From a virus, in IMG/VR virus record IMGVR_UViG_3300045988_179622: a DNA stretch of 64,000 nt; one strand, 5' to 3'. Made by a program: the position numbers and the translations under genes. The notes beneath the pieces are model-generated. The model was not told the DNA's origin and did not search any database. It worked only from the letters and a program-made list of their open reading frames with translations. How positions within the stretch are numbered: position 1 is the stretch's first letter; each line of letters starts with the position of its first letter. Shown here piece by piece: positions 3,600 to 57,983 of the stretch.

Positions 3600-4283
3600 C
3601 TAATGTACTATATATTTCTTTGTTACTAATACACAAAGTCCAACACAAAGTGCAAAAAGTACAAAAATTAACATTAGTGTAATCACAATTAAACTTAATA
3701 CGGCTACTGTCTTTCCTGCTCTATTCCAACTATCCTGTACTCGGTTAAATTCCTCAGCATCTCTATACTTGCTTTTGCCGTTTTTCCAAGCCCATACATT
3801 TCCAAACATTCCACATATAATCATCATAAATAAGATTAGTGGTCTATAAAATAAACTTAGCCATATCAACAACGGTATATAACAACTATTACCTAAACCC
3901 CATATCCAAGAAAAACAAAAAGCTCCCCAGTTCCAACCTAAATTTGGTTCATTACCTTTTGCATCTTTTTCTGGGTTCATAATCTTATCAATAAACCTAT
4001 CTATTCTATCTGATAAACTAACTTTCTCTTTGGGTTGTTTCTTTTCCTTTTTAGTTTTAATACTAGTATTGACACCCTCTTTAGGATTAAGTGAACCCGT
4101 TTCTTTTGTTTCTATAGTTGCTGCCTTGGCTTGTGTTACTGTTTCTGTCCTTGCTAGATTTTCAGTATCTATAGTTATATTACTATTACTATTACTATTA
4201 CTATTACTATTACTATTACTGTCAATATTTTTGCAATTAATTGGTTCTTCTGTCATATTAAAGACCCTCCTTTCTATAGTCAA
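3600..4283 (-). CDS. membrane protein with an N-terminal (NS)n low-complexity tract
   Basis: Multiple hydrophobic segments. The NSNSNS tract is coded by an (AATAGT)n microsatellite at 4180-4225. Confidence 0.45.
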   Translation of the reverse strand: MTIERRVFNMTEEPINCKNIDSNSNSNSNSNSNSNITIDTENLARTETVTQAKAATIETKETGSLNPKEGVNTSIKTKKEKKQPKEKVSLSDRIDRFIDKIMNPEKDAKGNEPNLGWNWGAFCFSWIWGLGNSCYIPLLIWLSLFYRPLILFMMIICGMFGNVWAWKNGKSKYRDAEEFNRVQDSWNRAGKTVAVLSLIVITLMLIFVLFALCVGLCVLVTKKYIVH

Positions 4284-5140: not shown

Positions 5141-5602
5141 TTATTCTTTCCTTACAGCTAGTATTGAACTTTTTGCCAGCTCATCGCTTCGCTCATTTTC
5201 TTCATTCCCTGAGTGCCCTTTAATCCAAATAAACTTTACCTTGTGTAACTCTAATAAAGGTAACAATCTCTCCCACATATCTATATTTAATGCAGGTTTC
5301 TTATTCTTCTTTATCCAATTATTTGATTTCCATTCATTTAGCCAACCTTTATTGACTGTATCTACCACATATTTCGAGTCACTATATATCTGTACTCTAC
5401 TAGGCTTACTCAAAGACGCTAATGATACTATTACAGCTTCTAATTCCATTCTATTGTTTGTCGTTGTCCCTTTAAAAGAACCCCTAATTTCATCTCTAGT
5501 ACCATTATTATTGCTTCCTTTGTAGATAATTACTGCACCATATCCACCAGTCTTATCTACCCTAGAATAAGAGCCATCTGTATAAATATCCACTTTTCTC
5601 AT
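5141..5602 (-). CDS. rnhA: ribonuclease HI
   Basis: IYTDGS, ELEAVI, YSDSKYVV and WIKGHSG..N.RSDELAK motifs of RNase H1. Confidence 0.8.
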   Translation of the reverse strand: MRKVDIYTDGSYSRVDKTGGYGAVIIYKGSNNNGTRDEIRGSFKGTTTNNRMELEAVIVSLASLSKPSRVQIYSDSKYVVDTVNKGWLNEWKSNNWIKKNKKPALNIDMWERLLPLLELHKVKFIWIKGHSGNEENERSDELAKSSILAVRKE

Positions 5603-27169: not shown

Positions 27170-29560
27170 TTATAAGTATTCAGCCATATAAACATCTAAA
27201 TCATATGGTGTTATATCACCATCCACATCAAAGATAATATCAGCTTCCTCTTTATCATCTACCATTAATCCTCTTGCTCTTGTGTTTAAAGCAATTAAAT
27301 CGTATAAAGTAGGCTTTTGCATATTTACAACACTATAACATACGGCTGCTACAGTATCTAAATTACTTTCTACATTATTTCCACCAACTCTAGTATAACA
27401 ACTACCTAAGGATACACCCATATCGCCCCAAATTATTTCTCTGTTTACACAGTCAAAAATAACTGGAATACTGATACAACCATTTGTGGTTAAATCCATT
27501 TTCTGTTCAACTGTTTTTGGCTCATAAATTTCTCCTGACTTTACACTTTTTCTATTCATCCAGCCGAAACTAGCGTGTGGTAGTTCAGATAAAATCTGCT
27601 GTGTATAGCTGTACACCTGATAAACAACATATCTTCCTCCATACTTTACTACAGAGTCAATATCAATATCAATGAACTCACTTACACCTTTTCCATTTAC
27701 ATTTCCACCGTCTGTAATATCGCCTGAGTGACAAGCTCTATATTTCTTAGAGCGTAAGTTTGTGTATGAAATATGTTCCATATAATTCCAGTTTTCATCA
27801 AAGATAGCACCTGATAAGTCTAAGTCTACTCTACTCTTTTTATCATTTGTCCACCAAATAAACCCTCTTAATACTTTTGTGCTTGCTGGAATAGGTACTC
27901 TTGAACCTCTTACCATAGTCTTTAAAGTTTTGTTGGCACTTCTCTGGCTGAAAGGTACAATATAATTCTTAAACTCTTTTGACACATAAACATTACCTAA
28001 CCAGTCTCTCTTGCTATAATTTGTTACTAAAGCGTTTTCACAAATTCTTACTATAGACTTACAAGCCTTTTCTGAGATAGCTTCTAGCTTATTTTCTACA
28101 TTATAGCTATTTGCTAGTCTGCCCTTAGGGAAGAAAACCCTATACTTAGTGTCTTTAACTTCATTTGAAGCCTTATCTTCCTTTTCGTTATTGTTACCAG
28201 GATTGCTATCACTAGTTTCAACTTCAACTTCAACCTCAGCTGATTGATTTCTGTGTTTGAAATGCTCCCTTACCTGTAATAAAACAGGTGTAGCTACTTC
28301 TACTGCTACTTCTCTGAAAGCATTGACAATTTCAAATTCATTTTCCTTATAAAGTCTTAATAAATAATCTAATTTTCTTGCTAGTTCACCTGGACGCTTC
28401 TTTAATAAATTGATTGCTGCGAGTTCCTTTGTTGCAAGTAACTGCTCTACCTTAGATGCGTAAGTTTTTATCTCTTTAGGACAATTTCTTAACTTTCTAT
28501 AAGCTTCATTTACTGTAGGATATGAATTTTTATATTCAGCAGGGTGTAACTTTTCTCCTACTCTAATCCACTTACCCTTGTGGCGTAACATATCTTCTTC
28601 AATACCTTTACCACAACTTTCAAGCAACTCCATAATTAATCTGCGTTCCTTACGGTTGAAGTTTCTATACTTAGTTGTCCCAGCTAAACTTACATCACCA
28701 CCTGACATCTCTGTAATAAGTCTAAGGACATCTGTTGCTGTCTTAATGTATCTTTTTAATAGAAAATTAAGTTCTCGTTCTGATAAATAATTACATTCTG
28801 TTATTAAGATTTTACATATCAAAGCTACATTTTCTTTTAATAAAATTTCTTTAGGTAGCATACAGAATACATCTGCGTTTGTTAGTAACCACTCTAAGTC
28901 TTTCTTATCTGTAGACGATAGAGAAGTTTTTGAATTACATAAATTTAAACCTATCTCTAATAAATCAAAATAATTTCCTACTTCAATTACCTTTAATTTA
29001 TTTGTTACTTCTTCTTCTAAAGGCAATCTCTCTTTCTTTTCTGATTCTGGATAATATGTGCCTAATGAGAGGTAATGTAAGATTGCATTAAGATATAATT
29101 CTACTTCTTCTGCTTCCATTACTTCTTCTGGAAAGTTTGGATAAAGAGGCTTGTAAACTACATTTGCACCTACAAGTTTCTTTAATACAGACACTACTTC
29201 TAAATACATTTTCTTTAGTTCGTCTACATTCTTTTTCTTTAAAATTTCAATAGCTTCTTCTGAAAATGTATAACCTAAACTCCCAATATTCTTTAATAGA
29301 GTTGCTACATAAACTTCTTCTTTAGTAACAGCACTTTCAGGTGTTTTTGCTTCTATTACTGCCTTTATTTCTGCTACTCCATCCTTTTCTTCTGCTTCTG
29401 CTTTCAAACCACTTTCATTCTCTAACCCTAACAAAAGTTTATTTCGTCTTCTTAACAAGATTTCAAGAGCCTTTGGCTCTGCTAAACTTCCTGGTTTAAA
29501 TATTGTCTTTCTTTGGTTGTTTGTTGCCTTTTCTTTCATAGTATCTGCATTAATTCCCAT
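27170..29560 (-). CDS. large protein (796 aa) with a C-terminal TerD-like domain
   Basis: VDLDLSGAIFDENWNYMEHISYTNL and SGDITDGGNVNGKGVSEFIDIDID resemble TerD VDLDASAFLLD and GDNxTGEGDGDDE. Confidence 0.4.
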   Translation of the reverse strand: MGINADTMKEKATNNQRKTIFKPGSLAEPKALEILLRRRNKLLLGLENESGLKAEAEEKDGVAEIKAVIEAKTPESAVTKEEVYVATLLKNIGSLGYTFSEEAIEILKKKNVDELKKMYLEVVSVLKKLVGANVVYKPLYPNFPEEVMEAEEVELYLNAILHYLSLGTYYPESEKKERLPLEEEVTNKLKVIEVGNYFDLLEIGLNLCNSKTSLSSTDKKDLEWLLTNADVFCMLPKEILLKENVALICKILITECNYLSERELNFLLKRYIKTATDVLRLITEMSGGDVSLAGTTKYRNFNRKERRLIMELLESCGKGIEEDMLRHKGKWIRVGEKLHPAEYKNSYPTVNEAYRKLRNCPKEIKTYASKVEQLLATKELAAINLLKKRPGELARKLDYLLRLYKENEFEIVNAFREVAVEVATPVLLQVREHFKHRNQSAEVEVEVETSDSNPGNNNEKEDKASNEVKDTKYRVFFPKGRLANSYNVENKLEAISEKACKSIVRICENALVTNYSKRDWLGNVYVSKEFKNYIVPFSQRSANKTLKTMVRGSRVPIPASTKVLRGFIWWTNDKKSRVDLDLSGAIFDENWNYMEHISYTNLRSKKYRACHSGDITDGGNVNGKGVSEFIDIDIDSVVKYGGRYVVYQVYSYTQQILSELPHASFGWMNRKSVKSGEIYEPKTVEQKMDLTTNGCISIPVIFDCVNREIIWGDMGVSLGSCYTRVGGNNVESNLDTVAAVCYSVVNMQKPTLYDLIALNTRARGLMVDDKEEADIIFDVDGDITPYDLDVYMAEYL

Positions 29561-29950
29561 AACACATAGCCCTTTCTTTTTTATATCTTCTTGTTTCTTT
29601 TTATTTTATTTTTCTTAACTTATACTAATTTACTTTCATTTAATCTCTAATCTAATATCTTTCATACTATTCTCTAGTTTTATCGCATTAAAAAAGGTAA
29701 CAGATTGTCTTAGGTATCAATTAGCCAGTTTTATGTACATTCAACTAGTTAATCTCTTTAACACTTAGACTTTCTGTCACCTATATTTTAAATTTCCTTT
29801 AGCCTTTCCTGTGGTTTTTTTCGCCTTGGTTAAGTTCTAAGGTCTTTCCACTTAGTGCAAAACTAAACTAAACTAAACTAAAGAAAATAATTTCAGGGTA
29901 ATCGAAAATTCTAGTTGTTTTCTTGTTCTTCAATAATCTAATAACTTACA

Positions 29951-30266
29951 TAGAAGGAAGAATTTTCATAGCCCGTTTTAGGAAACCGTTAAAGCTATCC
30001 ACTATTATAATCAGTATTTATTATAATCAGTATTTTGTTCAATTAGAAGGAAGCTTTAATCATAGCCTAAACATTTATTTTTTCTTTTTTTTTTAACTTT
30101 GTAGACTTAGGAAACTATTAAAACTATTCGGTATGTTTTAATTTTTCAATAATAAATTAATAGAAGGAAGTCTTAATATAGCCTAAGTCCTATTGTATTA
30201 TATTGGAAATAAAGAAAACTAATCTATTTACCTTTATCTTCATCTACTAAAATAACTAGAAGGAAG
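29951..30266. repeat. four iteron-like direct repeats TAGAAGGAAG-N8-9-ATAGCC
   Basis: Copies start at 29951, 30044, 30161 and 30257. Confidence 0.6.
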
Positions 30267-30348
30267 CCTTCCTATAGCCAATATAATGGTTTTTTGGTTT
30301 TTATCGAGATTTTCTTATATTTTTAAGAGTGAAACCCTAACACCCTCA

Positions 30349-30419
30349 AGCACTAGATGGGAGTCGAACCCACCACTTCAGATTGGAAGTCTGATGTTTT
30401 ACCGATAAACTACTAGTGC
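30349..30419 (-). tRNA. tRNA-Gly (anticodon UCC)
   Basis: Acceptor GCACTAG/CTAGTGC, anticodon stem TCAGA/TCTGA, loop CTTCCAA, T-arm GTGGG-TTCGACT-CCCAT, discriminator U. Confidence 0.75.
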
Positions 30420-30462
30420 AGTTTATTTTACATTTTTCTAAAGGTATAGGTTTATACCTGTA

Positions 30463-30498
30463 GGTTTACACCTGTGTCATTTCGCATCCTTCTAAAAC
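30463..30498 (-). CRISPR. single CRISPR-like repeat (plus a partial copy at 30448-30462) next to leader-like element copy 1
   Basis: ggtttacacctgtgtcatttcgcatccttctaaaac. This is the same family as the 36-bp array repeat. Confidence 0.4.
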
Positions 30499-30499
30499 C

Positions 30500-30703
30500 T
30501 CAAAAGTTCTTTAGATTATATGCTTAACTTATATTTACAAGTGCTTTATGACTTTTTAGTTTCAAAGGACAAAACCCTTGCCCTCTACTTGCTTCGCTCT
30601 CTTACCTTAGATTAAACTAAGTAATAAGTAATAAGAAGTTCCACCAAACACTTTTCCTTTTCTTTTAACTTTTTATACACCCCTTAAGTATCGTATGTCC
30701 CCT
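30500..30703 (-). other. conserved leader-like element copy 1 (about 200 bp), ending in the promoter-like motif
   Basis: Near-identical copies lie at 31192-31414 and 31739-31929. All contain acaagtgctttatgac...caaaggacaaaacccttgccctctac...ccccttaagtatcgtatgYcccc. Confidence 0.6.
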
Positions 30704-30893
30704 CTAATAACTAATTCTATCTATATAAACCACTAAATTAATTATTTAATTGGGGCTTTATTTATTTGTTTACTCAACTTGTCGGTTTTTCCGACAGGTT
30801 CAAATGTATATTTTGTATATTTAGGTTTTACACCTATGTTATGTTTGCTTCCTCATAATCACTTTGGTTATAAGATTATTGAAATTCCCTCAA

Positions 30894-39842: not shown

Positions 39843-41027
39843 TTATGTATTATATACCTTAATTTCTACTTTAAACGGAGCCCAGTTATCGACTTGGTGT
39901 TCTAATATATCTTGTAAGAGAACCTTGGCTTCATCTACTGGTATTTCTTTTGACACTCTAAAGCAAAACTCATCGAACCTATAGTAATAGAAATGGATTT
40001 TATCTGATAAGCCTCTTTTATTAAACTCATTATTTGCGTGTTTTAGCATAATAGACATTATATCGGAGGCTGTTCCTTGAATTGGTTTATTTATGCACCT
40101 GTTGGTAGTTCTTCTACCATCTTCTTCTAACCTTGTCCCAAAGAAGGTCTCTTGTGGAACTATTCTTTTGGATGCTATATAGGCGTAATTCTTATATCTC
40201 TTTATCTCTGGTATTGAATTAAAGTATCTATATACCCTATCTACCACTTCATCTTCTAATCCACAACCACAGTCCATTAGGCTATTCAATGTAGCTCCAT
40301 AAAGTAACATAATCCATAAACCTTTAAAAGCCTTTCTTTCTACTACTGTTACTAGGGGTTCTTCTTCTTCTTTTTCTTCACCTTCTCCTCTTTCTCCCTC
40401 GCCTTCTCCTAATATTGCTTTGCTTAATTCTGTATAAAAATCTGTATTTGGTTGTGCTAATAAATCGTGTAATGCTTTTGCACCCATAACCTCTGCATAG
40501 ATTAATGGTTCTTGATTATGTATATCTACACATACCGTATATTCCTTATTACTATTTAAGGGTAATATGCTTTCATTTGGTAGCTGATGTATGTTTGGAT
40601 TTTTATAATATATCCTATTTGTAGCTGATATACTAATTTTGGGGTAAACCAACCCCTTTTCCTTTCCTTTATAAACTAAGGAACATAAAGAGCGTATTTC
40701 TTGTATGTCATTTGCTATCTGATGCCCTTTTTCAGCTAACCTACTTACTTCCGTTTTACCTAACTTAAATCTGTCTTTGAAGCATATTATATAGTCGGGG
40801 TGCATATTAGCCCTAAACCATTTCTCTAGTTCTTTATTACTTCTTGCATTTATACCATAATCTTCTTTGAATCTTTCTAACTTTTGTTGTAAGCTATTTT
40901 TTAATTGTAAAGTTTCTTCCTCTGTATAAACACTTCCTATCCTAATACCTGCCTTTGCACTCTCGTTTATACACCTGTACAGGTATCCTATATCAGGCTT
41001 GTCCTTTAAACTATCTATATGGTACAC
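39843..41027 (-). CDS. family A DNA polymerase, polymerase (palm/fingers) domain only
   Basis: ISATNRIYYKNPNIHQLP (the TGRLSSxDPNLQNIP of Pol I), motif A CVDIHNQEPLIYA, motif B RKAFKGLWIMLLYG, IQGTASDI, and motif C YRFDEF. No exonuclease motifs. Confidence 0.65.
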   Translation of the reverse strand: MYHIDSLKDKPDIGYLYRCINESAKAGIRIGSVYTEEETLQLKNSLQQKLERFKEDYGINARSNKELEKWFRANMHPDYIICFKDRFKLGKTEVSRLAEKGHQIANDIQEIRSLCSLVYKGKEKGLVYPKISISATNRIYYKNPNIHQLPNESILPLNSNKEYTVCVDIHNQEPLIYAEVMGAKALHDLLAQPNTDFYTELSKAILGEGEGERGEGEEKEEEEPLVTVVERKAFKGLWIMLLYGATLNSLMDCGCGLEDEVVDRVYRYFNSIPEIKRYKNYAYIASKRIVPQETFFGTRLEEDGRRTTNRCINKPIQGTASDIMSIMLKHANNEFNKRGLSDKIHFYYYRFDEFCFRVSKEIPVDEAKVLLQDILEHQVDNWAPFKVEIKVYNT

Positions 41028-41112
41028 TTTTTTCCTTTACCACCTTTACTCTTTACTGTTATTTATTCCTAATTTATCTTATCTATCTATCTATAGACCC
41101 CTTTGATTTAGC

Positions 41113-41913
41113 TTAAAGGGTCTTATATAACGGTAAAGGTAAAATTGACTTCTGATATTTTTCTAGTGTTCTACATACAGTTGCTACCTCCATACTAGCT
41201 AAATTAGTTACCTCATCTGTAACCGTATTTAAAAACGGTCTTGCAATTCCATTAACTTTCCTATACAGATAAACATTATCTAATACATATTCTGTATCTG
41301 CTACTCTGAACTGTACAGGTAAAATTTCGCCCCTTGGTGTAAGCCTTAAACTTACACCACTTATCTTGAACTTCTCTCCATATGCTTCTGCTGGGTACTG
41401 TAAGTCTGGAATATTTACATTTGTCCCGTAACTTATCAATACTGTACAAAGTATTTGCTTGTTTACTACCTTTACTTTGTAGCCTACTAATGAACCTAAT
41501 CTTGACTTTAATTCTATTCGAAGATTTCTATATAAATCTTTATTTGTAAATGGTAGCACAATCCAATTATCCTGTAACTGCATTAACTTTACTACAGCTC
41601 TTTTCTGCTCCTCTACTGTGTATTCCTCTGCTACCATATAATCTAATAAATTCTTCTTTAATTCCTCAAACTGCTTCTCTGTAAACCTCTTTATTGTCTC
41701 CACTTTTCTACTTGTAAGTATCTGTGTGGGATTGCAAGTAAACCTATAGTCTAATCCATTTATGTATAGTGTTTCTGCTCCTGTTTTACCTTTGCTCTCT
41801 CCCTGCACCTTATACATCTCATTCTCTGCTAAGTATCTTAAAATCGCTTCTCCCTTAGCTCTTGTTGTTACTGTTATCTTATTCTTCTGCATATTCTTTC
41901 TTTCCTCCATCAT
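41113..41913 (-). CDS. hypothetical protein in the replication module
   Basis: 266-aa ORF. Confidence 0.4.
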   Translation of the reverse strand: MMEERKNMQKNKITVTTRAKGEAILRYLAENEMYKVQGESKGKTGAETLYINGLDYRFTCNPTQILTSRKVETIKRFTEKQFEELKKNLLDYMVAEEYTVEEQKRAVVKLMQLQDNWIVLPFTNKDLYRNLRIELKSRLGSLVGYKVKVVNKQILCTVLISYGTNVNIPDLQYPAEAYGEKFKISGVSLRLTPRGEILPVQFRVADTEYVLDNVYLYRKVNGIARPFLNTVTDEVTNLASMEVATVCRTLEKYQKSILPLPLYKTL

Positions 41914-42020
41914 CTTGCTTACTTATATTATTACTATTACAGCTATCTATCTATCTATCTATTTATATTACTTATTCAGCTATTTTCGCTTATTTGCTAT
42001 TATTCTCTTATTCTCTTAGC

Positions 42021-43628
42021 TTAGAATAAATTATCTAATTGCTCTATTGCTGTAATTTCACTTTCATTTTTATTGTCATTGTCATTGTCATTGTCCTGTT
42101 GTTCCATATTTACACCCATAAACTTAGCTCTATTATTATTACTATTACTATTACTATTACTATTTAATTCTTTAACACTCGCTTCATAAACTTCATGCAC
42201 AAACTTACTCTGCTTCTGTGATACTCTGCGTGTACTGTGTACGGTTTCTATAATCTTAGAATGGAATAAATATTTTCGACTTGACAATAATGTTGCTAAT
42301 TTATCCTTATTCCCATAAACATAATCTACTTCAGCTAATATTCCTTCGTTGCCTAAACCCTCTACTGCTTTCTTTAAATACTGTATCTGTGCTATTGTCA
42401 ATACCCTTGTTTTACCCTTTTTAGCAATATCCTTGGCTCGCTCCATAAACTCATTCGCAGGTGTTATATTCTCTAATTTGGATATTAATTTCATTATCTC
42501 GGCACTATTCTTTATAACTACTCCATCTGTGCCTTCTTTTTGAACTGCCACTCCCTGATTTTCTCTCTCTTTTTCCTTTTCTCTCTCCCAAAACTCTATA
42601 TCCTTTTCAAAACCTTTTTGGAAGTCTTCTTGCTCAAAAATTGACATTAGCTCTGTTAAACAATCTAAAGACTCCTGTGTTAAACCTTCATATACAATAG
42701 TGTCTTCAAAATCAAGTATATTCTTCTTTTCCTCTGTCTTTCCTGTTAGCATCCAATGTATAATCTCGTACTCTGGCTTTGTACTTTTATATATATCTTT
42801 AAAATGCCTTCTATATTCAAACTGTTTAAAAAATTTATGTGCTTGTTTAAGTAAGTCTACACTACCTAAAACTATTTTTTCATTATCTTTATCTTTATCT
42901 TCATCTTTATCTTTTAAACTTGGACTTCCTTCTCCTCCACTTGATACTATAGTATCTAAGCATACGGCTGTTAAAAATATATCTCTATATTCCTTTACTT
43001 TATCTAGTAAACTAGCATATTCCTTTGACTCCCTACATTTATTGTAGACTCCTAACATATAATCTACTCTATAATATCTATATAACTTATCCATTCCTAA
43101 ATATGATGGACTAGATAGAGGTAAACCTATTGTATCTCGTAACTCTATATACTTCCTTAATACCTCCACTTGTTGCTTTCTTAGATACTTCTCAAATACT
43201 TCTAGCAACAAGTCTAAATTTGAATACCTATTCTTAAACCATTCTGGCTTTCCATCTGTTTTTGTATATGCAAGCCATTTTAAATCCTCTATATACACCG
43301 TTTCTATCTTCTTTAATAATGTGTATACTTCTTTGTCATACCTATCTTCGGCATCTCTTAGTGTTATGTATACGGGATTTCCGTTTTCTATTAAACTAAA
43401 CTGTATATTGGCTACTCTACCTGTAGCTTTACTTACAAAACCTAATTTCTTCGGTCTGTATTCTATACCCTGTAACTCTAGCTCATTGTTTATTACCGTC
43501 TTGTACAAACTCTTATATGCGTTTATATACTCTATTTCTGCACTACTAAACACCTGTAATAAACTATCTCTATTTAAGCCCTCTTTAAACTTCCTATATC
43601 CCTCTGCAATTTCTCCATATATTTCCAT
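42021..43628 (-). CDS. hypothetical protein (535 aa) with an (NS)n tract
   Basis: Large ORF. NSNSNSNS coded by (AATAGT)n at 42130-42175. Confidence 0.45.
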   Translation of the reverse strand: MEIYGEIAEGYRKFKEGLNRDSLLQVFSSAEIEYINAYKSLYKTVINNELELQGIEYRPKKLGFVSKATGRVANIQFSLIENGNPVYITLRDAEDRYDKEVYTLLKKIETVYIEDLKWLAYTKTDGKPEWFKNRYSNLDLLLEVFEKYLRKQQVEVLRKYIELRDTIGLPLSSPSYLGMDKLYRYYRVDYMLGVYNKCRESKEYASLLDKVKEYRDIFLTAVCLDTIVSSGGEGSPSLKDKDEDKDKDNEKIVLGSVDLLKQAHKFFKQFEYRRHFKDIYKSTKPEYEIIHWMLTGKTEEKKNILDFEDTIVYEGLTQESLDCLTELMSIFEQEDFQKGFEKDIEFWEREKEKERENQGVAVQKEGTDGVVIKNSAEIMKLISKLENITPANEFMERAKDIAKKGKTRVLTIAQIQYLKKAVEGLGNEGILAEVDYVYGNKDKLATLLSSRKYLFHSKIIETVHSTRRVSQKQSKFVHEVYEASVKELNSNSNSNSNNNRAKFMGVNMEQQDNDNDNDNKNESEITAIEQLDNLF

Positions 43629-43640
43629 TGGCTTTTTCTG

Positions 43641-46289
43641 TCACTTCCATTCTGCTATATTATCTAGTATTTTACCTAATTGTCCATTTGGTACTGGTAC
43701 TCTATCTAGTGTCTTATTCCCTGTTACCCCTATATCTAGCGTGATTACATCTTTCTTCGCTTTCTTTATTAACTTACTCACATTTGGATTTACTACATTT
43801 GTTTTACTTCTGTTTAATACCCAATAAACACTATCTAGTGCAAATCCATAGTGTGCTAGTTTTAAGCACATTCCCCTCACATCACTTACTTCATTTTGTG
43901 TGACTACCAAAGGTACTGTGCTTGCTCTAAGTATACTTGTTACCACAATATCTGTTAAACTGTTACTCATCCCTAATTTTCCTAAATCTATGATTATGTA
44001 GTCATATTTAGTTGCATATGCTGTTAATAACCCTCCTATATCACTTGTTATTAACTTTGGAAGTAGCTCAGGTGCATATAAACCACTAAAGTAATCTAAC
44101 CTCTTTACCTGTCTCGTCTCTACATTCTGTACTATATCCTCTAATATACTGGTGTTTGTACTATCTACTCCCTTTGCTAAGTAATACCCTAGACTAGTGC
44201 GTTGCATTGGTTCTTGTAAGTCTAATTCCAATATAGGGTTCTTCTGCATATATTTATCTAACTTTGGACTGTCTAAGTCAAAATCCATTACTAACACATT
44301 CCCTAATGTTAAAGACTTGGCTATACTTGCTGTTATGTTACTTACTCCATAACTACCTGTCCCTATTACTGCTATTATCTTAGCTTGTCCTGTGTATTTA
44401 CATACCATATTCCCTGCTTGTCCTGCTAGTTGCTTATAATATGCTACACTCTCTTTTAATTTCGTGTTTTCGTTCTGTATCTTACTTATGCTTGTCTTTG
44501 CATTTGCTACAGCTCTTATATCGTCTAACTGTTCTTGTAACTTTATCTCTAACTGTGATACCCTTTCCTCAGCCTCTTTCTTCTGAGTTTCTATTACTTC
44601 TTTTTCACTAGCTAAACTATCTATTTCCTTTTTTGCAAGCTCTAGCTCTTTTTTCGCTTCATTTAAACTTGCTTCTTGTTCTACCTTATATACTGAAATG
44701 CTTTCATAGTCGTTCTGTATCTTCGCTTTACTTTCCTTTAACTGAATATTCTCATTCTCTAAATCTGTATATCGGCTCTCTCTTTCCTCTAAATATTTAT
44801 TCCTATCCTCTAACTCCTTGACTGCCTCCCTTACATTTCTTTCTCCTATGTTTTTCGCTTCAGTTAAACTTACTCGTAACTCTTTAATTTCTTCACTCGA
44901 TTTTTTTACTCTATCTTTCTCTTTTTCATATCTTTCTTCTAACCCTTTTTTCTCACTCTCTATCTTCTCTATTTTATTATTTAACTCGTTTAAACTATCC
45001 CTTAAACTATCTATCTCTTTATTCGCTCTATCTAACTTTGTTTTTAGCTCTACTCTGTTTTCTTGGAATATATCTAACTGTGCAACTGCTTTTTTCCTTG
45101 CAGTTGTTTCTTCTGTTAAACGCTCCTCTAAATCCCTATTGTCCTCTGTTACAAGAGATATTTTGGTTTCTAAACCACTTACTTTTGCATCACTATCACT
45201 AAGTTGCTTTCCTATTCTCTCTAACTCAAACTTTAAACTCGCTACTTCTTTTTCTTTTCGCTGTATTTGTTGCTGTAACTGTATCTGTATTTGTTGCTCT
45301 TTCTGTTGTTTTTCTTCTTCTTCTTTCGCTTCTTCCTCTTTTATACTTCCTCTTTCACTTTCACTTTCACTTTCACTTCTCTTTTTATATTCTTCATATT
45401 CTTTTATCTTCTCACTTAAGTCTTTTTCACTTACTCTTGCTCTATCTAACTGCTGATGTAAACTATCTATCTCTGCGTTTAATCGCTTAAACTCTAATTC
45501 TATTTCTGTATTATTATTATTATTGTTGTTGTTGGTAGTAGTAGTAGTAGTTTTATTATCGGTGTCTACACTAACACAAATATCTTCATTTTCTTCAGCA
45601 TCTTCTTTATTTAGGTTCTTTTCTGATAAACTATCTTTTTCGTATTTCCCTAATACCCTATTGTCTTTCTCGTTTTCGACTTCTACTTCTACTTCTTTAG
45701 TTTTGACATCTGCTTCTACTTCGGCTTCTGTTTTAACTTCTGTGTTTATATCTATATTTGTACTAGAAATATGCTCTAATAAGGCTGTTTCTGTGTCTAT
45801 CCCTGTCACTGTCCCTGTCTCTGTCCCTGTTTCCGTTGTTGAACCTGAACCTGAAACTGAACCTGAAACTGAACCTGAAACTAAATCTATGTCCAAATCT
45901 AAGTCTAAACCTAAACCTAAATTGTCCTCTCTTTCAATTCCTTTGACAGCACTATGCTCCGTATCTGTACTCTGATAAACTAATTTCTCTATCTCTGCTT
46001 TATCTGAAGTACAAATGTCACACATTTCTACTAAGCCTTCTAACTCCTCTTTTGCTATCTTCTCTGTATAAACATATATAGGGACAGCCTTTTCTCTTAA
46101 CTTGTTAAACAACTTCTTTGCTATCCCTTTTTCTATTTCTTCTGTATGCTCCACTATAAGTGTCGCTCTATACTCTGCCTGCTCCATTAACTTCTCTACT
46201 TCTTTATATGTCAAAGCTCTCTGACACTTTACTTGGGGTAGGTAGAGCATTACTTTATTCCCTACTTTGAATATATATTCCAAATTCAA
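43641..46289 (-). CDS. large coiled-coil protein with a degenerate MinD/ParA-like (TadZ/CpaE-like) C-terminal domain
   Basis: N-terminal receiver-like region, about 400 aa of E/K coiled coil, then KIIAVIGTGSYGVSN (degenerate deviant Walker A) and VLVMDFDLD. Confidence 0.45.
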   Translation of the reverse strand: MNLEYIFKVGNKVMLYLPQVKCQRALTYKEVEKLMEQAEYRATLIVEHTEEIEKGIAKKLFNKLREKAVPIYVYTEKIAKEELEGLVEMCDICTSDKAEIEKLVYQSTDTEHSAVKGIEREDNLGLGLDLDLDIDLVSGSVSGSVSGSGSTTETGTETGTVTGIDTETALLEHISSTNIDINTEVKTEAEVEADVKTKEVEVEVENEKDNRVLGKYEKDSLSEKNLNKEDAEENEDICVSVDTDNKTTTTTTNNNNNNNNTEIELEFKRLNAEIDSLHQQLDRARVSEKDLSEKIKEYEEYKKRSESESESERGSIKEEEAKEEEEKQQKEQQIQIQLQQQIQRKEKEVASLKFELERIGKQLSDSDAKVSGLETKISLVTEDNRDLEERLTEETTARKKAVAQLDIFQENRVELKTKLDRANKEIDSLRDSLNELNNKIEKIESEKKGLEERYEKEKDRVKKSSEEIKELRVSLTEAKNIGERNVREAVKELEDRNKYLEERESRYTDLENENIQLKESKAKIQNDYESISVYKVEQEASLNEAKKELELAKKEIDSLASEKEVIETQKKEAEERVSQLEIKLQEQLDDIRAVANAKTSISKIQNENTKLKESVAYYKQLAGQAGNMVCKYTGQAKIIAVIGTGSYGVSNITASIAKSLTLGNVLVMDFDLDSPKLDKYMQKNPILELDLQEPMQRTSLGYYLAKGVDSTNTSILEDIVQNVETRQVKRLDYFSGLYAPELLPKLITSDIGGLLTAYATKYDYIIIDLGKLGMSNSLTDIVVTSILRASTVPLVVTQNEVSDVRGMCLKLAHYGFALDSVYWVLNRSKTNVVNPNVSKLIKKAKKDVITLDIGVTGNKTLDRVPVPNGQLGKILDNIAEWK

Positions 46290-46626
46290 ACCCTCACTTA
46301 AATTTATTTTATATTGACTCTATCTCTATCTCTATCTCTCTCTACTAAACTACTTAATAATATACTTAAACCTCTACAATACATACATAAATAAATACCA
46401 ATAAACATACTAAAATAAATTCATTAAATATATATTGTCTGTATTCTTAGTTCTTTTCTCTACCCTATAAGCATTAAATGTCCCCCTCTTTTACATATTT
46501 TCAACTAAAAAAGACAGGAATTTATATCCTGTCTTAAAAAATTTTTCTGATTTAGTTTTGCTTACTTCAATTCAACTTAGCTTAACTTAACTTAACTCAA
46601 CTCAACTCAACTTAATTTAATTTAGT

Positions 46627-47298
46627 TTAGTTTATGTATTCTACACTTTCGCCTGATTTTGCTCGACTATCCTCTCGTATAATAGATATTAATTCTGATA
46701 CCCTACTCCTAATTGTTATCTTCTGTTCCATACTTGGTAACTCTGGTAACTTTAGTTTTGTATAATCTAACATAGGAGAATATTTTTCATACTGTGTATC
46801 ACTTACCTTATATGTTTCTCCTGTTCTCTTTATCTCCTTTACTGTCTGTGGGAAGCCATCAAACTCTACCCACCTAATCATATCAGTATCATAACTTCTA
46901 TTATCATATTTCATATATTGCTTAGTGTAGAAAAATAACACTTTCTTGAATACACCATCACATACGCTTAGTAATTCTTGTATGTCCTTTCGTGCTTTTC
47001 CTGTATATAGCTCGCCCATTCCTTGTTCTATGATAACTAGCCTTACAGCTTGTTTATGTGTAAGCATATAAACATTTACATCATCTATGTTATAATAAAC
47101 TTTCTCTGCATATATTCCTTGCTGGGCAAAATATTCCGTTAATAATCTGTTCGGACTCTCTGTTAAGATAACTAAACTAATATCCCCAGAGTCTACAGGT
47201 ATTCTATTAGCCTCTATCTGCTCCTCTATGCTCTGTGGTGGTCTGAAATACCTTTTAATTACTTGTTTTACCTTTTCAAGCATATATTTTCTATTCAC
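46627..47298 (-). CDS. hypothetical protein
   Basis: 223-aa ORF. Confidence 0.4.
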   Translation of the reverse strand: MNRKYMLEKVKQVIKRYFRPPQSIEEQIEANRIPVDSGDISLVILTESPNRLLTEYFAQQGIYAEKVYYNIDDVNVYMLTHKQAVRLVIIEQGMGELYTGKARKDIQELLSVCDGVFKKVLFFYTKQYMKYDNRSYDTDMIRWVEFDGFPQTVKEIKRTGETYKVSDTQYEKYSPMLDYTKLKLPELPSMEQKITIRSRVSELISIIREDSRAKSGESVEYIN

Positions 47299-47644
47299 CT
47301 TACCTTATTTATTCATTCATTAATTAATTCATTCATTTACTCACTTGATTAGTTGGTTTCGTTCTATCTATCTATCTATCTATCTAATCAATCTAATTTC
47401 TCCATTCTTGTTCCGTTGTCCTTAAAACACATTTCCACAAAGACTTCTATCTTTTTGTGTCCCTTGACAATATTGGTATTTTCCTTTTTCCTTCTGTTCC
47501 TCAAAGGTTTTACTACATTCACATACCCCATTTACAATATCTAAATATTCACATACTTCATCTTTAATGTGCTTCATCTTTATTTTTTTCCTCCAAAAAT
47601 CTGTTTATATTCTATTTTGTTTGGTTTACCTATCTATTTTTCTT

Positions 47645-49522
47645 TTATTCTAATTTACCAACTAATTCTGCAAACTCATTTCCTGTCATTGTCTCTTTTA
47701 ACAACAACTGCTGTGCTAATTCTTCCAATAAACTCTTATTATCAATCAACATTTCTTCTGTGCTTTTTTTTAGTTTCTTTAGTAGCTCCTCTACCTTCTG
47801 TTCGGAATTATATAACCAGTTAGCACTACAAGTATAATTACTACTCCCTAAGTAATTGCTTGGTGTCATTCCACTATATATTGTATCGGACATACCATAT
47901 GTAAGCACATATCTCTTAGCTATTGCTGTGGCTTGCTCTAAATCATTTGATACTCCTGTTGTCGTTGTCCCTATAAATAGTTTCTCAGCACACATTCCTG
48001 CTAACGATACACTTATTTGATTTTCTAAGTCCTCTGCTGTTTGTAAGTGCTGTTGTTCTTCTGTAGGCGTATGCAAAATATAACCTAATGCACCATTTGT
48101 TCTCGGTACTATACTTATTTTTGATAGCGTATTTTTTCCTGATAACTTATATTGTGTAAATGCGTGTCCTACCTCGTGATATGCTATCATTCTTCTTTCT
48201 TCTTCACTTAATGCTATACTCTGTACTTCCTTACCTGTAAGCCTTACCTCAAAAGCAGAATATAAATCACTCTCATCTACTTCGTTATTTCCTCTCTTTA
48301 ATGCAATAAAAGTAGCTTCATTGACAATGCTCTGTAAATCTGCTCCTGATAAACCAGCACTTATTACAGCTAAATGATGTACATTTAAACCTTCTTTACA
48401 TTTAATTCCCTTTAAATGAACTTTAAGTATATCTTCTCTACCTTGTACATTAGGTAATTGCATAACTACTTTTCTGTCAAATCGCCCTGGGCGTGTAAAT
48501 GCTGGGTCTAATTCCTCTGGTCTATTTGTTGCTGCTATTACAACTATGCTAGAACTCTCCGTAAATCCATCCATTTCCTTCAGTATCTGTGTTAATGTAC
48601 TATCTCTCTCTGAATTACTGTCTGATGTTCTGCGTTGTCCTACACTATCTACTTCGTCTATAAATACTATACAAGGACTGTTTTTTCTAGCTTCACTAAA
48701 TAAACTCCTTACTCTTGAAGCTCCCACACCCACAAACTTCTCTACAAAGTCTGAGCCAGCTACTTGTATGAAATTTACTCCTGCTTCACCTGCAACTGCT
48801 TTAGCTAATAATGTTTTTCCTGTTCCTGGAGGTCCGACTAATAATACTCCTTTTGGACTTTTCGCTCCTATTTCTCTATATTTTTTAGGTGCTTTTAAGT
48901 AATCTACTACCTCCTGTACACTCTCTATTGCTTCCTCTTGTCCTGCTACATCGCTAAACCTTGTACTTACACTTGTGCAGTCTGTTTTCTTTACTCTATG
49001 TGGTAACATATTCTGTATTAGTATAAGTAACAATAGTAGGGGGAATAGTATTCCTAAAAACTGCATTATGACCATTAGAAGACCTTTTCCATTACTATTA
49101 ATATCCACGGTTCTATAGAACTTTACATTGTGTTCTAGTAGTTTGTTATATACATCTTCATAATCTAAATATCCACAACTTACTTTCTTTCCGTCTTTTA
49201 ATGTGATTTCTAGGGTCGTTGTCGTAGACTTTGTGGCAAAATTACACTCAGCTACTTTATCTTGTTCGATTAAAGATATAAACTCTGAATATCCTATCTC
49301 TGTTGGCTGTAAAGTTGTTGTATTTGTACTTGTTTCTGCTTCTTCTGCTTCTTCTTCTGGTGTTGTTATTGTCGTTGTTGCTGTCGTTGTCGTTGTCGCT
49401 ACTCCTACTACTGACTCCTTAACAGTAGACTCGGCAAATACATTACTTATAATACAACAGATAAACAGCATTGTTGTAATTATTATCTTAAATAACGGCT
49501 TAGTTACATTTCTCTTATACAT
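47645..49522 (-). CDS. ftsH: FtsH-like AAA+ zinc metalloprotease
   Basis: N-terminal TM segment, Walker A GPPGTGKT, second region of homology, and HEVGHA zinc site. The extracytoplasmic region carries a poly-Thr linker. Confidence 0.8.
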   Translation of the reverse strand: MYKRNVTKPLFKIIITTMLFICCIISNVFAESTVKESVVGVATTTTTATTTITTPEEEAEEAETSTNTTTLQPTEIGYSEFISLIEQDKVAECNFATKSTTTTLEITLKDGKKVSCGYLDYEDVYNKLLEHNVKFYRTVDINSNGKGLLMVIMQFLGILFPLLLLLILIQNMLPHRVKKTDCTSVSTRFSDVAGQEEAIESVQEVVDYLKAPKKYREIGAKSPKGVLLVGPPGTGKTLLAKAVAGEAGVNFIQVAGSDFVEKFVGVGASRVRSLFSEARKNSPCIVFIDEVDSVGQRRTSDSNSERDSTLTQILKEMDGFTESSSIVVIAATNRPEELDPAFTRPGRFDRKVVMQLPNVQGREDILKVHLKGIKCKEGLNVHHLAVISAGLSGADLQSIVNEATFIALKRGNNEVDESDLYSAFEVRLTGKEVQSIALSEEERRMIAYHEVGHAFTQYKLSGKNTLSKISIVPRTNGALGYILHTPTEEQQHLQTAEDLENQISVSLAGMCAEKLFIGTTTTGVSNDLEQATAIAKRYVLTYGMSDTIYSGMTPSNYLGSSNYTCSANWLYNSEQKVEELLKKLKKSTEEMLIDNKSLLEELAQQLLLKETMTGNEFAELVGKLE

Positions 49523-55354: not shown

Positions 55355-56869
55355 TTACTTACCATAATTTATACCATATCCTCGTATATTTTCTCCTGTA
55401 TATGTTTCAGGAAGTTCATCTTCGGTAGGTGGTTCAGATATAAAATCAAATTGTGACTTTGTAACACCTTCTAATGCCATTCTTTCTTGCAATTCTTGTG
55501 TTAAGCAACCTACTCTCTTGTGGTAGCCTTTTATATCTTTTACAAAGCCATTCTCGTCAAACTCTGTTCCAGTTACAATAAACTTGTATAAGTCGTTTAT
55601 ATCAGCTGCATTTGGGTTATCATCCTTTACACCCACAACTTCACTTATCTGTATAATCTTTCTTGTACCATCCCTCATTATCTTCTGTACGATTACTAAG
55701 TTACACAGACTTGTTATATTATATAAAGCTAGGTCTGAGGGTTCATTCCCACTCTCAGCTAAGTATGCTGTCAAAAATCGTTTTATTGCACCTTCACTAC
55801 TTCCTGCGTGGAAGGTACAGTTAATTGGGTGTCCTGCCTGCATTATCTGCATCCCTAACTTAAATTCTATATTAGTACGCAATTCACCAAAACATACAAA
55901 TGTAGGCGATAATCTTAAAATATGTGTCATAATATTCTGCATTGTTGGGTCTTTAGGTGTTGGGTTTTCTACTTCCTTCGCCTCCAAATGAAGTACATCG
56001 TTATACACACGACCTGTAGCTGTCTTAAATCTAAGGTCGATTTCAGATGGGTTCTGTGCTAATACAGTTCTTGTATCTGCTGGCATTTCCTGTAATATTG
56101 CATTATTCATTGTTGTCTTACCTGATGATGTAGGTCCAACTGTCATCCAAGTTAATCCACCTCTTGGGCATAAGGACAATAATCGTGCCATATTATCGCT
56201 TAATGTACCAAACTTAACAATATCTCCTAAACCCATCTTGTCCTTTTTAAACTTTCTAAGTACAAAGGAATTATATCTAGGTGCATTAGGCTCTTGTGGG
56301 TCTGGTGACATAGCTGTAAAATGTACGGCTGCAATTCTATAACCCTCTACTGTTCGTGCATTAACCAAAGCATCTTTCGGAGTTAGTTTTACATCACCCA
56401 ACAGCTTACGCATTATGATTTCTTGCTGTTCAGGAGAGTCAAAAGAAACAATATTCCCCTCTGTGTCAGTTAAATCTTTAACCCTACCTTTTATTTCAAC
56501 TTTTATCTCTTTACCATTTGCTCGAATTTCATATACATCTGGATTTTCCATAGCTTTTGAGAGAATACCATAGTCTGTAATATCCTCTACTAATTTATCT
56601 ATTACTTTACCTACTTCCATTCTATTCCCAGAAGTATAGTTTTCTATGCTTACGCTTTGATTTTGATTTACATAATCTGTAATTAGCTTTTTAATAGCAT
56701 CTTTTTTGGCTTCTACTTCTAAATAACGATAATCATTACTATTATTCTTTATAAACTCTCTACATCTAGTAGTGTAAGCTTCCATTGTCATACTCTGTGT
56801 TGCTTCTTGCATTGACTTAGAATCTGCACCTCTAGCTACCTGTAGTCCTATCAACCTTTCTTGGTTCAT
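55355..56869 (-). CDS. CpaF/TadA-type secretion ATPase (VirB11/GspE family)
   Basis: Walker A GPTSSGKTT, CFGELR Asp/Walker B box and His box. AGGAGG ribosome-binding site. Confidence 0.8.
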   Translation of the reverse strand: MNQERLIGLQVARGADSKSMQEATQSMTMEAYTTRCREFIKNNSNDYRYLEVEAKKDAIKKLITDYVNQNQSVSIENYTSGNRMEVGKVIDKLVEDITDYGILSKAMENPDVYEIRANGKEIKVEIKGRVKDLTDTEGNIVSFDSPEQQEIIMRKLLGDVKLTPKDALVNARTVEGYRIAAVHFTAMSPDPQEPNAPRYNSFVLRKFKKDKMGLGDIVKFGTLSDNMARLLSLCPRGGLTWMTVGPTSSGKTTMNNAILQEMPADTRTVLAQNPSEIDLRFKTATGRVYNDVLHLEAKEVENPTPKDPTMQNIMTHILRLSPTFVCFGELRTNIEFKLGMQIMQAGHPINCTFHAGSSEGAIKRFLTAYLAESGNEPSDLALYNITSLCNLVIVQKIMRDGTRKIIQISEVVGVKDDNPNAADINDLYKFIVTGTEFDENGFVKDIKGYHKRVGCLTQELQERMALEGVTKSQFDFISEPPTEDELPETYTGENIRGYGINYGK

Positions 56870-56924
56870 TTATCTTATTTTCCTCCTCTCTTTTCGCTTT
56901 TAATTAATATTCTAATTACTTTAT

Positions 56925-57983
56925 CTATTTATCTTTAGTTTCTAATTCTTCCAATTTATCTACATCAACCTTTTTCTTCTTTTCCTTTTTAACGGATTTT
57001 TCCTTACCTAAATCTTTAACAATTCTTTCATATCCACCTAATCTCAATATTTCATCTAAAATGTTACCTAAATTAGTACAATAAGTTTTAGACTGAGGTG
57101 TGAAATTTGTACCTTTCTCTAAGTAAATCTCACTATTTAAACCACTTTCGATTATTTTCGTATCAAAAGGCAATACACCTAATAAAGGTAATTCTAGTGT
57201 GTTAAATATCCTTTTCGGATAAAATACATCTGTTTTTTTATTTAATATAACTTTAAATCTCTTTGGCGTTACGCCTTGGGCTGCTAAACTTCTACTTAAT
57301 GTATCAAAGTTAGCCACACAGTTAATCCCTTCGTCCCAAACTGTATAATAAGCATCTGAGTGATATAGTGCTGTACCTACAATATCAAAGGATAAATCCA
57401 AAGGACAGTCTAGCATAATAACATCAAATTGATATTTTATCTTTCGAAATGCTCTCTCTAAATTCTCAGACGCATTTTTAGAGTCTAAGTCCAAATAGTT
57501 ATATAACACTCTATCGTGTGATGCTAGTATAGACAGATTTCCTTTATTCACAATACTTTCACCTATTTCATTCTTTCCTTGTAAAAACGAAACTAAGTCT
57601 GGTTGGTTTTCTGTATATCTAATATCAAACAAATAAGGTATTGTCGGAAACATAATATTTAAGTCTATGAGTAGAACTGTTAAACCTTGCTTAGATGCTA
57701 AATAAGCTAGATTAGAGACTACTGTACTTGTCCCTACTCCTCCAGCACTTCCAATAAAACCTAAGATGTTATCTACTAACTTTAACTTTGTATCTGTGCC
57801 TTTTCCTGATAACACTTCCAAAGAAGTTTTTAATAAATCATCGGCTCTTTGGCTAAATGTCTTATTACTATTTTCGCTATCTTTATTGTTGTTATTGTTA
57901 TTATTACCACTAAATAAACGCATTTCTTTTTTCCTCCTTCTCTCTTTCTTTCTGTTATTTACTGCCAATACTACTACTGCCAA
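56925..57983 (-). CDS. CpaE/TadZ-like MinD/ParA-family ATPase
   Basis: GFIGSAGGVGTSTVVSNLA deviant Walker A. AGGAGG ribosome-binding site. Confidence 0.65.
   Translation of the reverse strand: MAVVVLAVNNRKKERRRKKEMRLFSGNNNNNNNKDSENSNKTFSQRADDLLKTSLEVLSGKGTDTKLKLVDNILGFIGSAGGVGTSTVVSNLAYLASKQGLTVLLIDLNIMFPTIPYLFDIRYTENQPDLVSFLQGKNEIGESIVNKGNLSILASHDRVLYNYLDLDSKNASENLERAFRKIKYQFDVIMLDCPLDLSFDIVGTALYHSDAYYTVWDEGINCVANFDTLSRSLAAQGVTPKRFKVILNKKTDVFYPKRIFNTLELPLLGVLPFDTKIIESGLNSEIYLEKGTNFTPQSKTYCTNLGNILDEILRLGGYERIVKDLGKEKSVKKEKKKKVDVDKLEELETKDK

Follow-up and report, generated by a model that had tools for sequence, protein, structure and literature searches.

Sequence analysis of a divergent clade of polymerase-domain-only family A DNA polymerases carried by very large phages

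What can a family A DNA polymerase do for a phage when it consists of a polymerase domain alone, and do the genes beside it supply what it lacks? The question is raised by a 64,000-nucleotide (nt) stretch of viral DNA from the IMG/VR record IMGVR_UViG_3300045988_179622, hereafter the window, which encodes a family A DNA polymerase (PolA) of 394 amino acids (aa). An earlier note on this DNA described a polymerase-domain-only enzyme with a low-complexity insertion, placed in an operon downstream of a 266-aa and a 535-aa protein, and proposed either a split polymerase, with exonuclease or accessory domains contributed by these two proteins, or a minimal PolA encoded by the element. The analysis below places the enzyme in a small, divergent group of polymerase-only PolAs that are carried by very large phages, and finds no support for the proposal that the two upstream proteins provide the missing domains. 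The coordinates of the features discussed are collected in Table 1.

The identity of the enzyme was confirmed by profile searches. The 394-aa protein matches Pfam DNA_pol_A (PF00476) with E = 2.2e-16 and 60.2 bits (cut-off 34.3) over positions 16–375 of the 381 in the profile, which cover thumb, palm and fingers, and it matches the PHROGs family phrog_17 ('DNA polymerase') at 6e-11. A search of PDB sequences with the single protein gave a best match of only 2e-4; when 13 family members were combined into a profile, bacterial Pol I structures (M. smegmatis, Geobacillus, Taq and E. coli Klenow) were matched at about 1e-20. In the profile alignment, positions 16–160 correspond to residues 209–357 of the 605-residue PDB chain 6vdc_A, and PolA residues ~12–30 align with the first polymerase-domain helix of Klenow-type fragments. 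The alignment therefore indicates that the first polymerase-domain helix is where PolA starts, with no remnant of an exonuclease domain. Pfam DNA_pol_A_exo gave no match on the 394-aa protein, in which neither a 3'-5' nor a 5'-3' exonuclease region was found, and only ~12 residues precede the first helix, so that no 3'-5' exonuclease or similar domain lies ahead of the polymerase domain.

The motifs A, B and C reported in the earlier note are all present. Motif A (VCVDIHNQEP) contains D168 and E173, motif B (ERKAFKGLWIMLLYG) contains R231, K235 and Y243, with Ile239 at position B3, and motif C (YRFDEF) contains D352-E353, where FDE replaces the usual HDE (Phe for His). The TxxGR-like motif is present as a TNR motif with R138, and the QG motif lies at Q317-G318. 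Both the metal-binding residues (D168, E173, D352 and E353) and those that bind the deoxynucleoside triphosphate (dNTP; R231, K235 and Y243) are intact. Across the 13 aligned relatives D168, E173, K235, Y243, D352 and E353 are invariant; R231, present in the window PolA, is not, being absent from proteins P0004, P0005 and P0007. Judged by its motifs and its extent, the open reading frame (ORF) encodes a complete, conserved PolA polymerase domain and nothing more.

A protein search with PolA returned 20 relatives of two forms, a short one of 366–394 aa and a long one of 521–529 aa. The aligned relatives are 30–50% identical and have the same polymerase-only architecture and N-terminus, as the minimal PolA offered as an alternative in the earlier note would require. 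Contigs bearing long forms reach 262, 600 and 673 kb. IMG/VR contained two further short forms (403 and 406 aa), which match residues 1–391 and come from viral contigs of 295 and 200 kb belonging to jumbo phages (contigs L004 and L007), as well as a pair of long forms, from contigs of 250 and 268 kb. The contigs of the clade are of phage size, about 200–670 kb. All members begin with M-[YFL]-x-I-D-[SR]-x-x-D-x-[PA] (in short, M-x-x-I-D), and this conserved start, together with the invariant catalytic columns, argues against a local truncation and for a polymerase-only architecture that is ancestral to the clade and under selection. More distant IMG/VR matches were ordinary PolAs of 600–960 aa, tblastn at E ≤ 1e-5 against 50,697 GenBank phage records found only two unannotated records at 23–24% identity, and a scan of genome contigs with PolA gave no match. 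Among the contigs compared were L001 (21 kb), whose PolA is 48% identical to that of the window, and L035, with a PolA of ~33% identity. The identical 394-aa protein was found in 192 blocks of an assembly index, the contigs that were read coming from gut-metagenome cohorts, and given this identity PolA is under purifying selection.

These observations bear on the possibility that the gene is a decaying remnant of a full-length polA, truncated or interrupted by an intron or homing endonuclease, and so either non-functional or in need of splicing to an exon that codes for the exonuclease. Group I introns and endonucleases frequently interrupt genes of the Jug phages, DNA polymerase among them (PMC12880540), and the neighbouring NrdD gene has inferred inteins, both of which would suit such an origin. 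However, the conserved N-terminal start is shared by the 13 aligned relatives and by the proteins of L004 and L007, the catalytic residues are all intact, and the protein is identical across the 192 blocks. Furthermore, only 85 nt separate PolA from the upstream gene, the upstream ORFs have no similarity to exonucleases, and Rfam detected no group I intron in the window. We consider a decaying fragment extremely improbable. A frameshift or intron that would join PolA to the upstream ORF was rejected in particular, given the 85-nt gap, the differing frames, the start conserved throughout the family and the absence of an Rfam group I intron. The earlier note had allowed that a separate, complete polA gene with motifs Exo I–III would make the present one a degenerate fragment; no such gene came to light in the window and its 10-kb flanks (~84 kb of a genome of at least 375 kb), and in the ORFs of this same region Pfam detected neither a DEDD exonuclease nor a second polymerase.

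Compared with known polymerases, the clade matches the PolA polymerase domain but lacks the defining features of each special group. It shares with bacterial and phage Pol I (the Klenow, Bst and Taq large fragments; PF00476) the arrangement of thumb, palm and fingers, motifs A, B and C, and the TxxGR-like and QG motifs, and differs in having neither exonuclease domain, in its great divergence, in FDE instead of HDE and in Ile at B3. A 2023 reclassification of PolAs compared their cores as Klenow-like fragments (exonuclease plus polymerase domain) and defined 19 clusters, with PolAs lacking most or all of the exonuclease domain appearing only as special cases, namely CcPol and the S-SBP1-type split with an adjacent exonuclease gene (PMC10201439). 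The clade described here could not be placed in any of the 19 clusters, a distinction drawn from the descriptions in that paper and not from a clustering run. In the S-SBP1-like split PolA of T7-like cyanophages (Czernecki et al. 2023, PMC10201439) the polymerase domain is likewise a separate gene, but a T7-type exonuclease gene lies directly adjacent as the result of a recent frameshift, whereas here no exonuclease-like gene is adjacent in five lineages. Nor is the window PolA T7-like in the sense of a Tyr at B3 and a thioredoxin-binding-domain region: its B3 residue is Ile239, bacterial Pol I enzymes are its closest relatives of solved structure, and the best 60 of 66 PDB matches do not include T7 polymerase.

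Two further groups of viral polymerases resemble the window enzyme in part. TV-Pol/PolA-S3H of virophages and polinton-like viruses (PMC11161782; Iyer et al. 2008 as cited in PMC10061031) is, like the window PolA, a viral palm and fingers without an exonuclease domain, and PolA–helicase fusions of eukaryotic viruses are described without this domain as well (PMC11161782). TV-Pol is fused or tightly linked to a superfamily 3 helicase or to a characteristic N-terminal domain, whereas the window PolA stands alone, its 394 aa being filled by the polymerase domain and no helicase lying adjacent. The polymerase of phiKZ-type jumbo phages (Iyer et al. 2021, PMC7824862) also lacks a fused proofreading domain, the exonuclease being encoded elsewhere, which sets a precedent for proofreading in trans by a distant gene product, but it is a family B enzyme and the defined main replicase, while the window enzyme belongs to family A.

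The two proteins encoded directly upstream could in principle restore what PolA lacks. Both are real genes, and the L001 contig carries syntenic homologues that are 42% (266-aa protein) and 34% (535-aa protein) identical. In Pfam, PHROGs, NCBIfam and PDB sequences neither protein matched an exonuclease, nor did any further family turn up; a PHROG match to 'thioredoxin domain' at 0.0026 was not credible, as no stretch passed the threshold alone. An exhaustive HMMER search with the 266-aa protein found only two relatives in 1.84 billion representatives, a word-indexed search with both proteins returned near-identical proteins only, and IMG/VR scans with both alignments found no relatives. The relatives of the 535-aa protein are confined to near-identical ones and its L001 counterpart, its length varying from 527 to 535 aa between samples. 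AlphaFold2, working from alignments of 2 and 4 sequences, gave poor models (pLDDT of 46 and 41 for the 266-aa and 535-aa proteins). The low-confidence model of the 266-aa protein has N-terminal helices followed by an all-beta half, and that of the 535-aa protein is mostly helical with one small alpha/beta unit at residues 41–123. A DEDD exonuclease should show a mixed alpha/beta (RNase H-like) pattern, which neither model resembles; this is weak evidence because the models are poor. A Foldseek comparison of both models with the PDB gave nothing at E < 0.1, with TM-scores of about 0.1; for models too poor to compare, this blank is uninformative and should not be taken as evidence of a new fold. 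Thus profile and structure searches for exonuclease folds returned nothing, and the 266-aa and 535-aa proteins are best read as lineage-specific ORFans that do not represent the missing exonuclease and may at most be lineage-specific partners.

The third gene upstream encodes an 882-aa protein with a conserved N-terminal domain, a low-complexity region, a long coiled coil and a C-terminal ParA/MinD-like domain that matches a 473-aa protein encoded 6.4 kb upstream of PolA in L007. Its Walker A motif (GTGSYGVSN) is without lysine both in the window and in the 50%-identical L001 homologue, so that the protein may be a pseudo-ATPase. The terminator-like site upstream of the 882-aa gene (46535–46511) is the only one on the minus strand in 38000–47500 and may bound a unit running from this gene to PolA. 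The operon of the earlier note is only plausible, and co-directionality extends to the whole 64-kb window.

In the other lineages too, a small unknown protein directly adjoins PolA. Comparisons of the upstream neighbours between PolA lineages by BLAST, phmmer and hhalign revealed no homology, even profile against profile, and the idea of a universal partner beside PolA was rejected on this ground. Apart from a FEN-type protein in L007 and L004, no exonuclease domain was found among the PolA neighbours of L001, L002, L004, L007 and L036; for L035 these were downstream neighbours only, as the contig ends 189 nt upstream of PolA. Pfam matches on 20 neighbour proteins from L004, L007, L035 and L036 comprised FEN, a 3D domain and, below threshold, AAA_5 and a choline-binding repeat.

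These neighbourhoods bear on a split replicase, in which a minimal PolA would be the main replicase and would receive proofreading, processivity or stabilising subunits from neighbours, that is, from the 266-aa and 535-aa proteins and perhaps from the 882-aa protein or HU. The order 882-535-266-PolA follows one terminator-like site and is kept in L001 at 50, 34, 42 and 48% identity, and the presence of a small protein next to PolA in every lineage is in keeping with a partner. There are precedents as well, in that split exonuclease and polymerase PolAs and a complex of PolA with a partner, CcPol-MP, exist (PMC10201439), and a surface laid bare by loss of the exonuclease domain should call for a partner (an argument of PMC10061031). 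However, none of the libraries gave a signal for an exonuclease or a clamp in either the 266-aa or the 535-aa protein, their low-confidence models lack the alpha/beta exonuclease pattern, and the upstream genes are not homologous between lineages. The synteny with L001 spans the whole 20-kb region from the FtsH-like gene to NrdD and therefore is not specific to the 266-aa and 535-aa genes, and the shared orientation applies to the entire window. A split replicase seems to us unlikely.

Small partners of exonuclease-truncated PolAs are known in another role. In SCCmec and related mobile elements such PolAs act with small, beta-rich, single-stranded DNA-binding (SSB) partners as primases that start chains de novo (CcPol-MP/PolA-SSB; Bebel et al. 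2020 as cited, Rice 2023, PMC10061031; PMC7581432 as cited). By analogy, the window PolA could be a PolA-based primase with a small partner that binds single-stranded DNA. Like CcPol, it is an exonuclease-less PolA on a mobile or viral element, flanked by small proteins without recognised domains; the C-terminal half of the low-confidence 266-aa model is all-beta, a 160-aa gene overlaps the end of PolA in L035, and no primase was seen in the ~84 kb inspected. On the other hand, the 266-aa model is too poor to call an oligonucleotide-binding (OB) fold, and no small gene lies downstream of PolA, where a 575-nt spacer is followed by HU. No COG3378/DUF927 helicase or recombinase was found nearby in the window and its flanks, the nearest helicase being of UvrD type and ~25 kb away. 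Furthermore, CcPol retains three exonuclease helices, or other N-terminal segments, which bind the partner, and its genes are ordered Pol-SSB-helicase with a serine recombinase nearby in Bacillota hosts. The window PolA keeps no such N-terminal remnant, and neither this gene order, nor the recombinase, nor the host holds here. A primase of this type is improbable.

The low-complexity insertion of PolA lies, as the earlier note stated, between motifs A and B. It is a GE-rich stretch, GEGEGERGEGEEKEEEE, situated right ahead of the O-helix (motif B); the underlying DNA consists of tandem TTC / TTCTCCTCT repeats at 40359–40397. The 48%-identical relative P0002 is without it, and the 99%-identical P0001 differs from the window PolA exactly here, with EGEEKEEE against EGEGGEEE. 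More than 200 short tandem-repeat arrays, many of period 6, were found in the window by TRF (for example at 4178–4220, 36246–36287, 42064–42164, 42883–42914 and 45260–45830), and simple peptide repeats occur in nine of the 46 ORFs (SN, DT/NT, GE, NS, DN, VSGS, SE, N8 and Q12). Those repeats that were checked are missing from the L001 orthologue, and protein lengths vary between samples, as with the 535-aa protein. The insert thus reflects a genome-wide microsatellite phenomenon and is not specific to the polymerase. It would have arisen by recent microsatellite expansion in a loop on the fingers surface that tolerates it, and is probably not a functional domain.

At the same site the 521–529-aa relatives carry an insertion of ~135 aa that matches a Big_4-type immunoglobulin-like (Ig-like) domain; with the family profile, a beta-galactosidase (8q2h) was matched in the PDB at 6e-19, and a precomputed Pfam assignment to Big_4 agrees. 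Big_4-bearing PolAs are encoded on L002 (for example L002:10001-11581), L005, L006 and L036, and the proteins are P0003, P0006 and P0008-P0020. We know of no described PolA with an Ig domain in the fingers loop before the O-helix.

A fingers loop that accepts large inserts is one of several features that might suit a specialised polymerase, used for lesion bypass, end-joining-type synthesis or copying of modified DNA in the manner of Pol theta, Pol nu or DpoZ. With the domain absent, no exonuclease activity is expected; B3, which governs the dNTP sugar and affects polymerase activity (PMC10201439), has a variable, non-aromatic residue, namely Ile in the window PolA and Leu or Asn in relatives; and the window is rich in DNA methyltransferases. 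Ordinary phage PolAs, however, often have Leu at B3, the SPO2-like cluster being an example (PMC10201439), no base-modification pathway genes (e.g. purZ-like) were seen in the window, and nothing ties the PolA gene to repair loci. Such a specialisation appears very unlikely.

What the enzyme is needed for depends on the phage that carries it. The window is ~31% G+C (28–35%), its GC skew is strongly negative throughout, and essentially all of its genes lie on the minus strand. Contigs with the identical PolA reach 230, 318 and 375 kb. Jug (jumbo gut) phages have genomes of 360–402 kb and ~30% G+C, are highly prevalent in the human gut, infect Bacteroides and Phocaeicola and are described as T4-like; their nrdD is interrupted by inteins or endonucleases, RNase H and NrdG are among their core genes, and their 'DNA polymerase' marker gene, the polymerase family of which is not stated, is frequently split by endonucleases (PMC12880540). 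The size of up to 375 kb, the G+C of 28–35% and the occurrence of PolA in 192 blocks are compatible with these properties, although they come from contigs and not from a complete genome. An nrdD with inferred inteins, an RNase H and a radical-SAM protein are likewise present in the window, whereas its PolA is intact, unlike the frequently split marker gene. A megablast of 20 kb against the GenBank phage set gave no match. The carrier is a phage of at least 375 kb with ~31% G+C, common in gut metagenomes, that fits the Jug phages by matching properties and not by sequence comparison.

Downstream of PolA lies a gene for an HU-type DNA-binding protein, from which it is separated by a 575-nt, AT-rich spacer without a coding-strand ORF of at least 60 aa. 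The order PolA then HU is conserved in L001 (L001:11575-11850) and L035 (L035:2252-2533). HU is the most conserved neighbour of PolA, and this linkage is more widely kept than that to the upstream ORFans. Nuclease functions that could complement a bare polymerase are encoded further away. The window has an RNase H1 and a RecJ-like protein, the RecJ family being 5'-3' exonucleases of single-stranded DNA, and the gene for the FEN-type 5'-3' exonuclease of L007, which has an orthologue in L004, lies 3.5 kb upstream of PolA.

From the protein's composition and these surroundings, we give about an even chance that the enzyme is a stand-alone, non-proofreading accessory PolA, used in gap filling or repair together with separate nucleases, while another polymerase replicates the genome. 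PolA would be an active, template-dependent DNA polymerase without proofreading, with a Pol I-like accessory role in filling gaps after primer removal and in repair synthesis. The nuclease steps would fall to separate proteins, namely RNase H1 and the RecJ-like protein in the window and the FEN-type enzyme near PolA in related jumbo phages. A polymerase that lacks proofreading is unlikely to be the sole replicase of a ~375-kb genome, and for this reason the bulk of replication would probably be carried out by another, proofreading polymerase encoded elsewhere.

Several points weigh against this accessory role. Inspection of ~84 kb, from a genome of at least 375 kb, revealed no second polymerase, and PolA lies amid replication-related genes (NrdD and HU), a position equally suited to a main replicase. 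The surface of PolA that faces the exonuclease is normally covered by that domain, so a partner protein is plausible, and the 266-aa neighbour is a candidate. Furthermore, the link to the Jug phages rests on properties, and the polymerase family of their marker gene is unstated in PMC12880540. A different division of labour, which we regard as rather unlikely, would be the following: in a PolA subfamily confined to huge phages, whose exonuclease domain is gone altogether and not just encoded apart, the exposed surface and the fingers loop may have become docking or insertion sites for lineage-specific modules (ORFans here, Big_4 in megaphages), giving a modular replicase or primase whose partners vary between lineages.

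Table 1. Positions of PolA, its neighbours and other features in the window and its flanks
Feature	Position	Strand	Evidence or remark
PolA, polymerase-domain-only family A DNA polymerase, 394 aa	39843-41027	-	Pfam DNA_pol_A match
GE-rich low-complexity insert of PolA, aa ~206-224	40356-40412 (approx.)	-	Tandem repeat; loop before O-helix
266-aa ORFan directly upstream of PolA (85-nt gap)	41113-41913	-	No family match
535-aa ORFan with NS/DN/DK dipeptide repeats	42021-43628	-	No family match
882-aa protein, first gene after terminator-like site	43641-46289	-	SMC/crescentin-type coiled-coil matches only
Terminator-like hairpin and T-run, possible upstream boundary of 882-535-266-PolA unit	46511-46535	-	Consensus match only
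HU-type DNA-binding protein, next gene downstream of PolA	38992-39267	-	Pfam Bac_DNA_binding 1.7e-22
NrdD, single 1264-aa ORF	34294-38088	-	Two apparent inteins
RNase H1, candidate primer-removal partner	5141-5602	-	Pfam RNase_H 5e-41
RecJ-like DHH/DHHA1 protein	59217-60764	-	TIGR00644 recJ 1.5e-41, below equivalog cut-off; Pfam DHH and DHHA1
PHP/PHP_C phosphoesterase, CehA/McbA-type	33147-33998	-	Weak RNase RNM similarity
FtsH-type AAA protease	47645-49522	-	M41 peptidase domain
CpaE-like and CpaF-like ATPase pair	55355-57983	-	AAA_31 (CpaE-like), T2SSE (CpaF-like)
Flotillin/SPFH protein	6109-7770	-	
MXAN_6230/SCO0854-family RING-domain protein, 796 aa	27170-29560	-	2e-125
TnpB-like protein, 438 aa	15965-17281	-	OrfB_IS605 and Cas12f1-like TNB domain
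RAGATH-18 RNA	19993-20067	-	51 bits, above gathering score; 2.7 kb from TnpB-like gene
UvrD-type helicase, 707 aa	L030/L031:7167-9290		Just outside window, ~25 kb from PolA
1057-aa fusion (Pnkp/RNA-ligase)	L032/L033:14921-18094		Flank; kinase (AAA_33), metallophosphatase and T4 Rnl1-type RNA ligase

The remaining contents of the window are varied. The inteins of NrdD are inferred from Hint and Intein_splicing Pfam matches inside the NRDD domain of the 66%-identical L001 homologue, and one of the inserted segments itself holds a DT/NT repeat. The FtsH-like, CpaE/CpaF-like, flotillin and RING-domain genes form a cell-like accessory set that is unusual for a phage. Several DNA methyltransferases, a radical-SAM protein and four tRNAs are also encoded. 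RNase H1, the PHP phosphoesterase and the RecJ-like protein make up a set of three hydrolases of nucleic acids, each encoded on its own. A homologue of the TnpB-like protein adjoins PolA in L006, and the kinase–phosphatase–ligase fusion in the flank looks, from its domains, like an RNA-repair enzyme.

A 2.4-kb region (29560–32024) has no coding-strand ORF of at least 60 aa. Within it, at 30453–31738, nine copies of a ~36-nt repeat (minus strand GGTTTAGAGGAATGTGGAATAACACAGGTGTAAACC) occur at a spacing of 64–68 nt, with unrelated spacers of ~30 nt. The copies form three clusters of 2, 6 and 1, the single one adjoined by a partial copy. In the orientation of the minus strand, a conserved unit of ~250 nt stands ahead of every cluster, and a duplicated tRNA-Gly(tcc) follows two of them, at 30349–30419 and 31539–31609. 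Given this geometry and a degeneracy that rises away from the ~250-nt unit, the clusters look like mini-CRISPR arrays with leaders. Rfam gave no match, and the core of the repeat, absent in exact form from 185,579 species genomes, was matched once in IMG/VR, on contig L034 (61 kb).

For the biology of huge phages, nothing is overturned by these results, and the most likely role of the enzyme is ordinary gap filling. The clade is nonetheless a case of a stand-alone, polymerase-only PolA that has been kept from jumbo phages of ~200 kb to contigs of more than 600 kb. It raises the questions of how a bare PolA domain stays stable and of how huge phages divide work between replicative and accessory polymerases. 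As a naturally minimal PolA, with short forms of 366–406 aa and a loop that accepts up to a whole domain, it may also be of interest to polymerase engineers.

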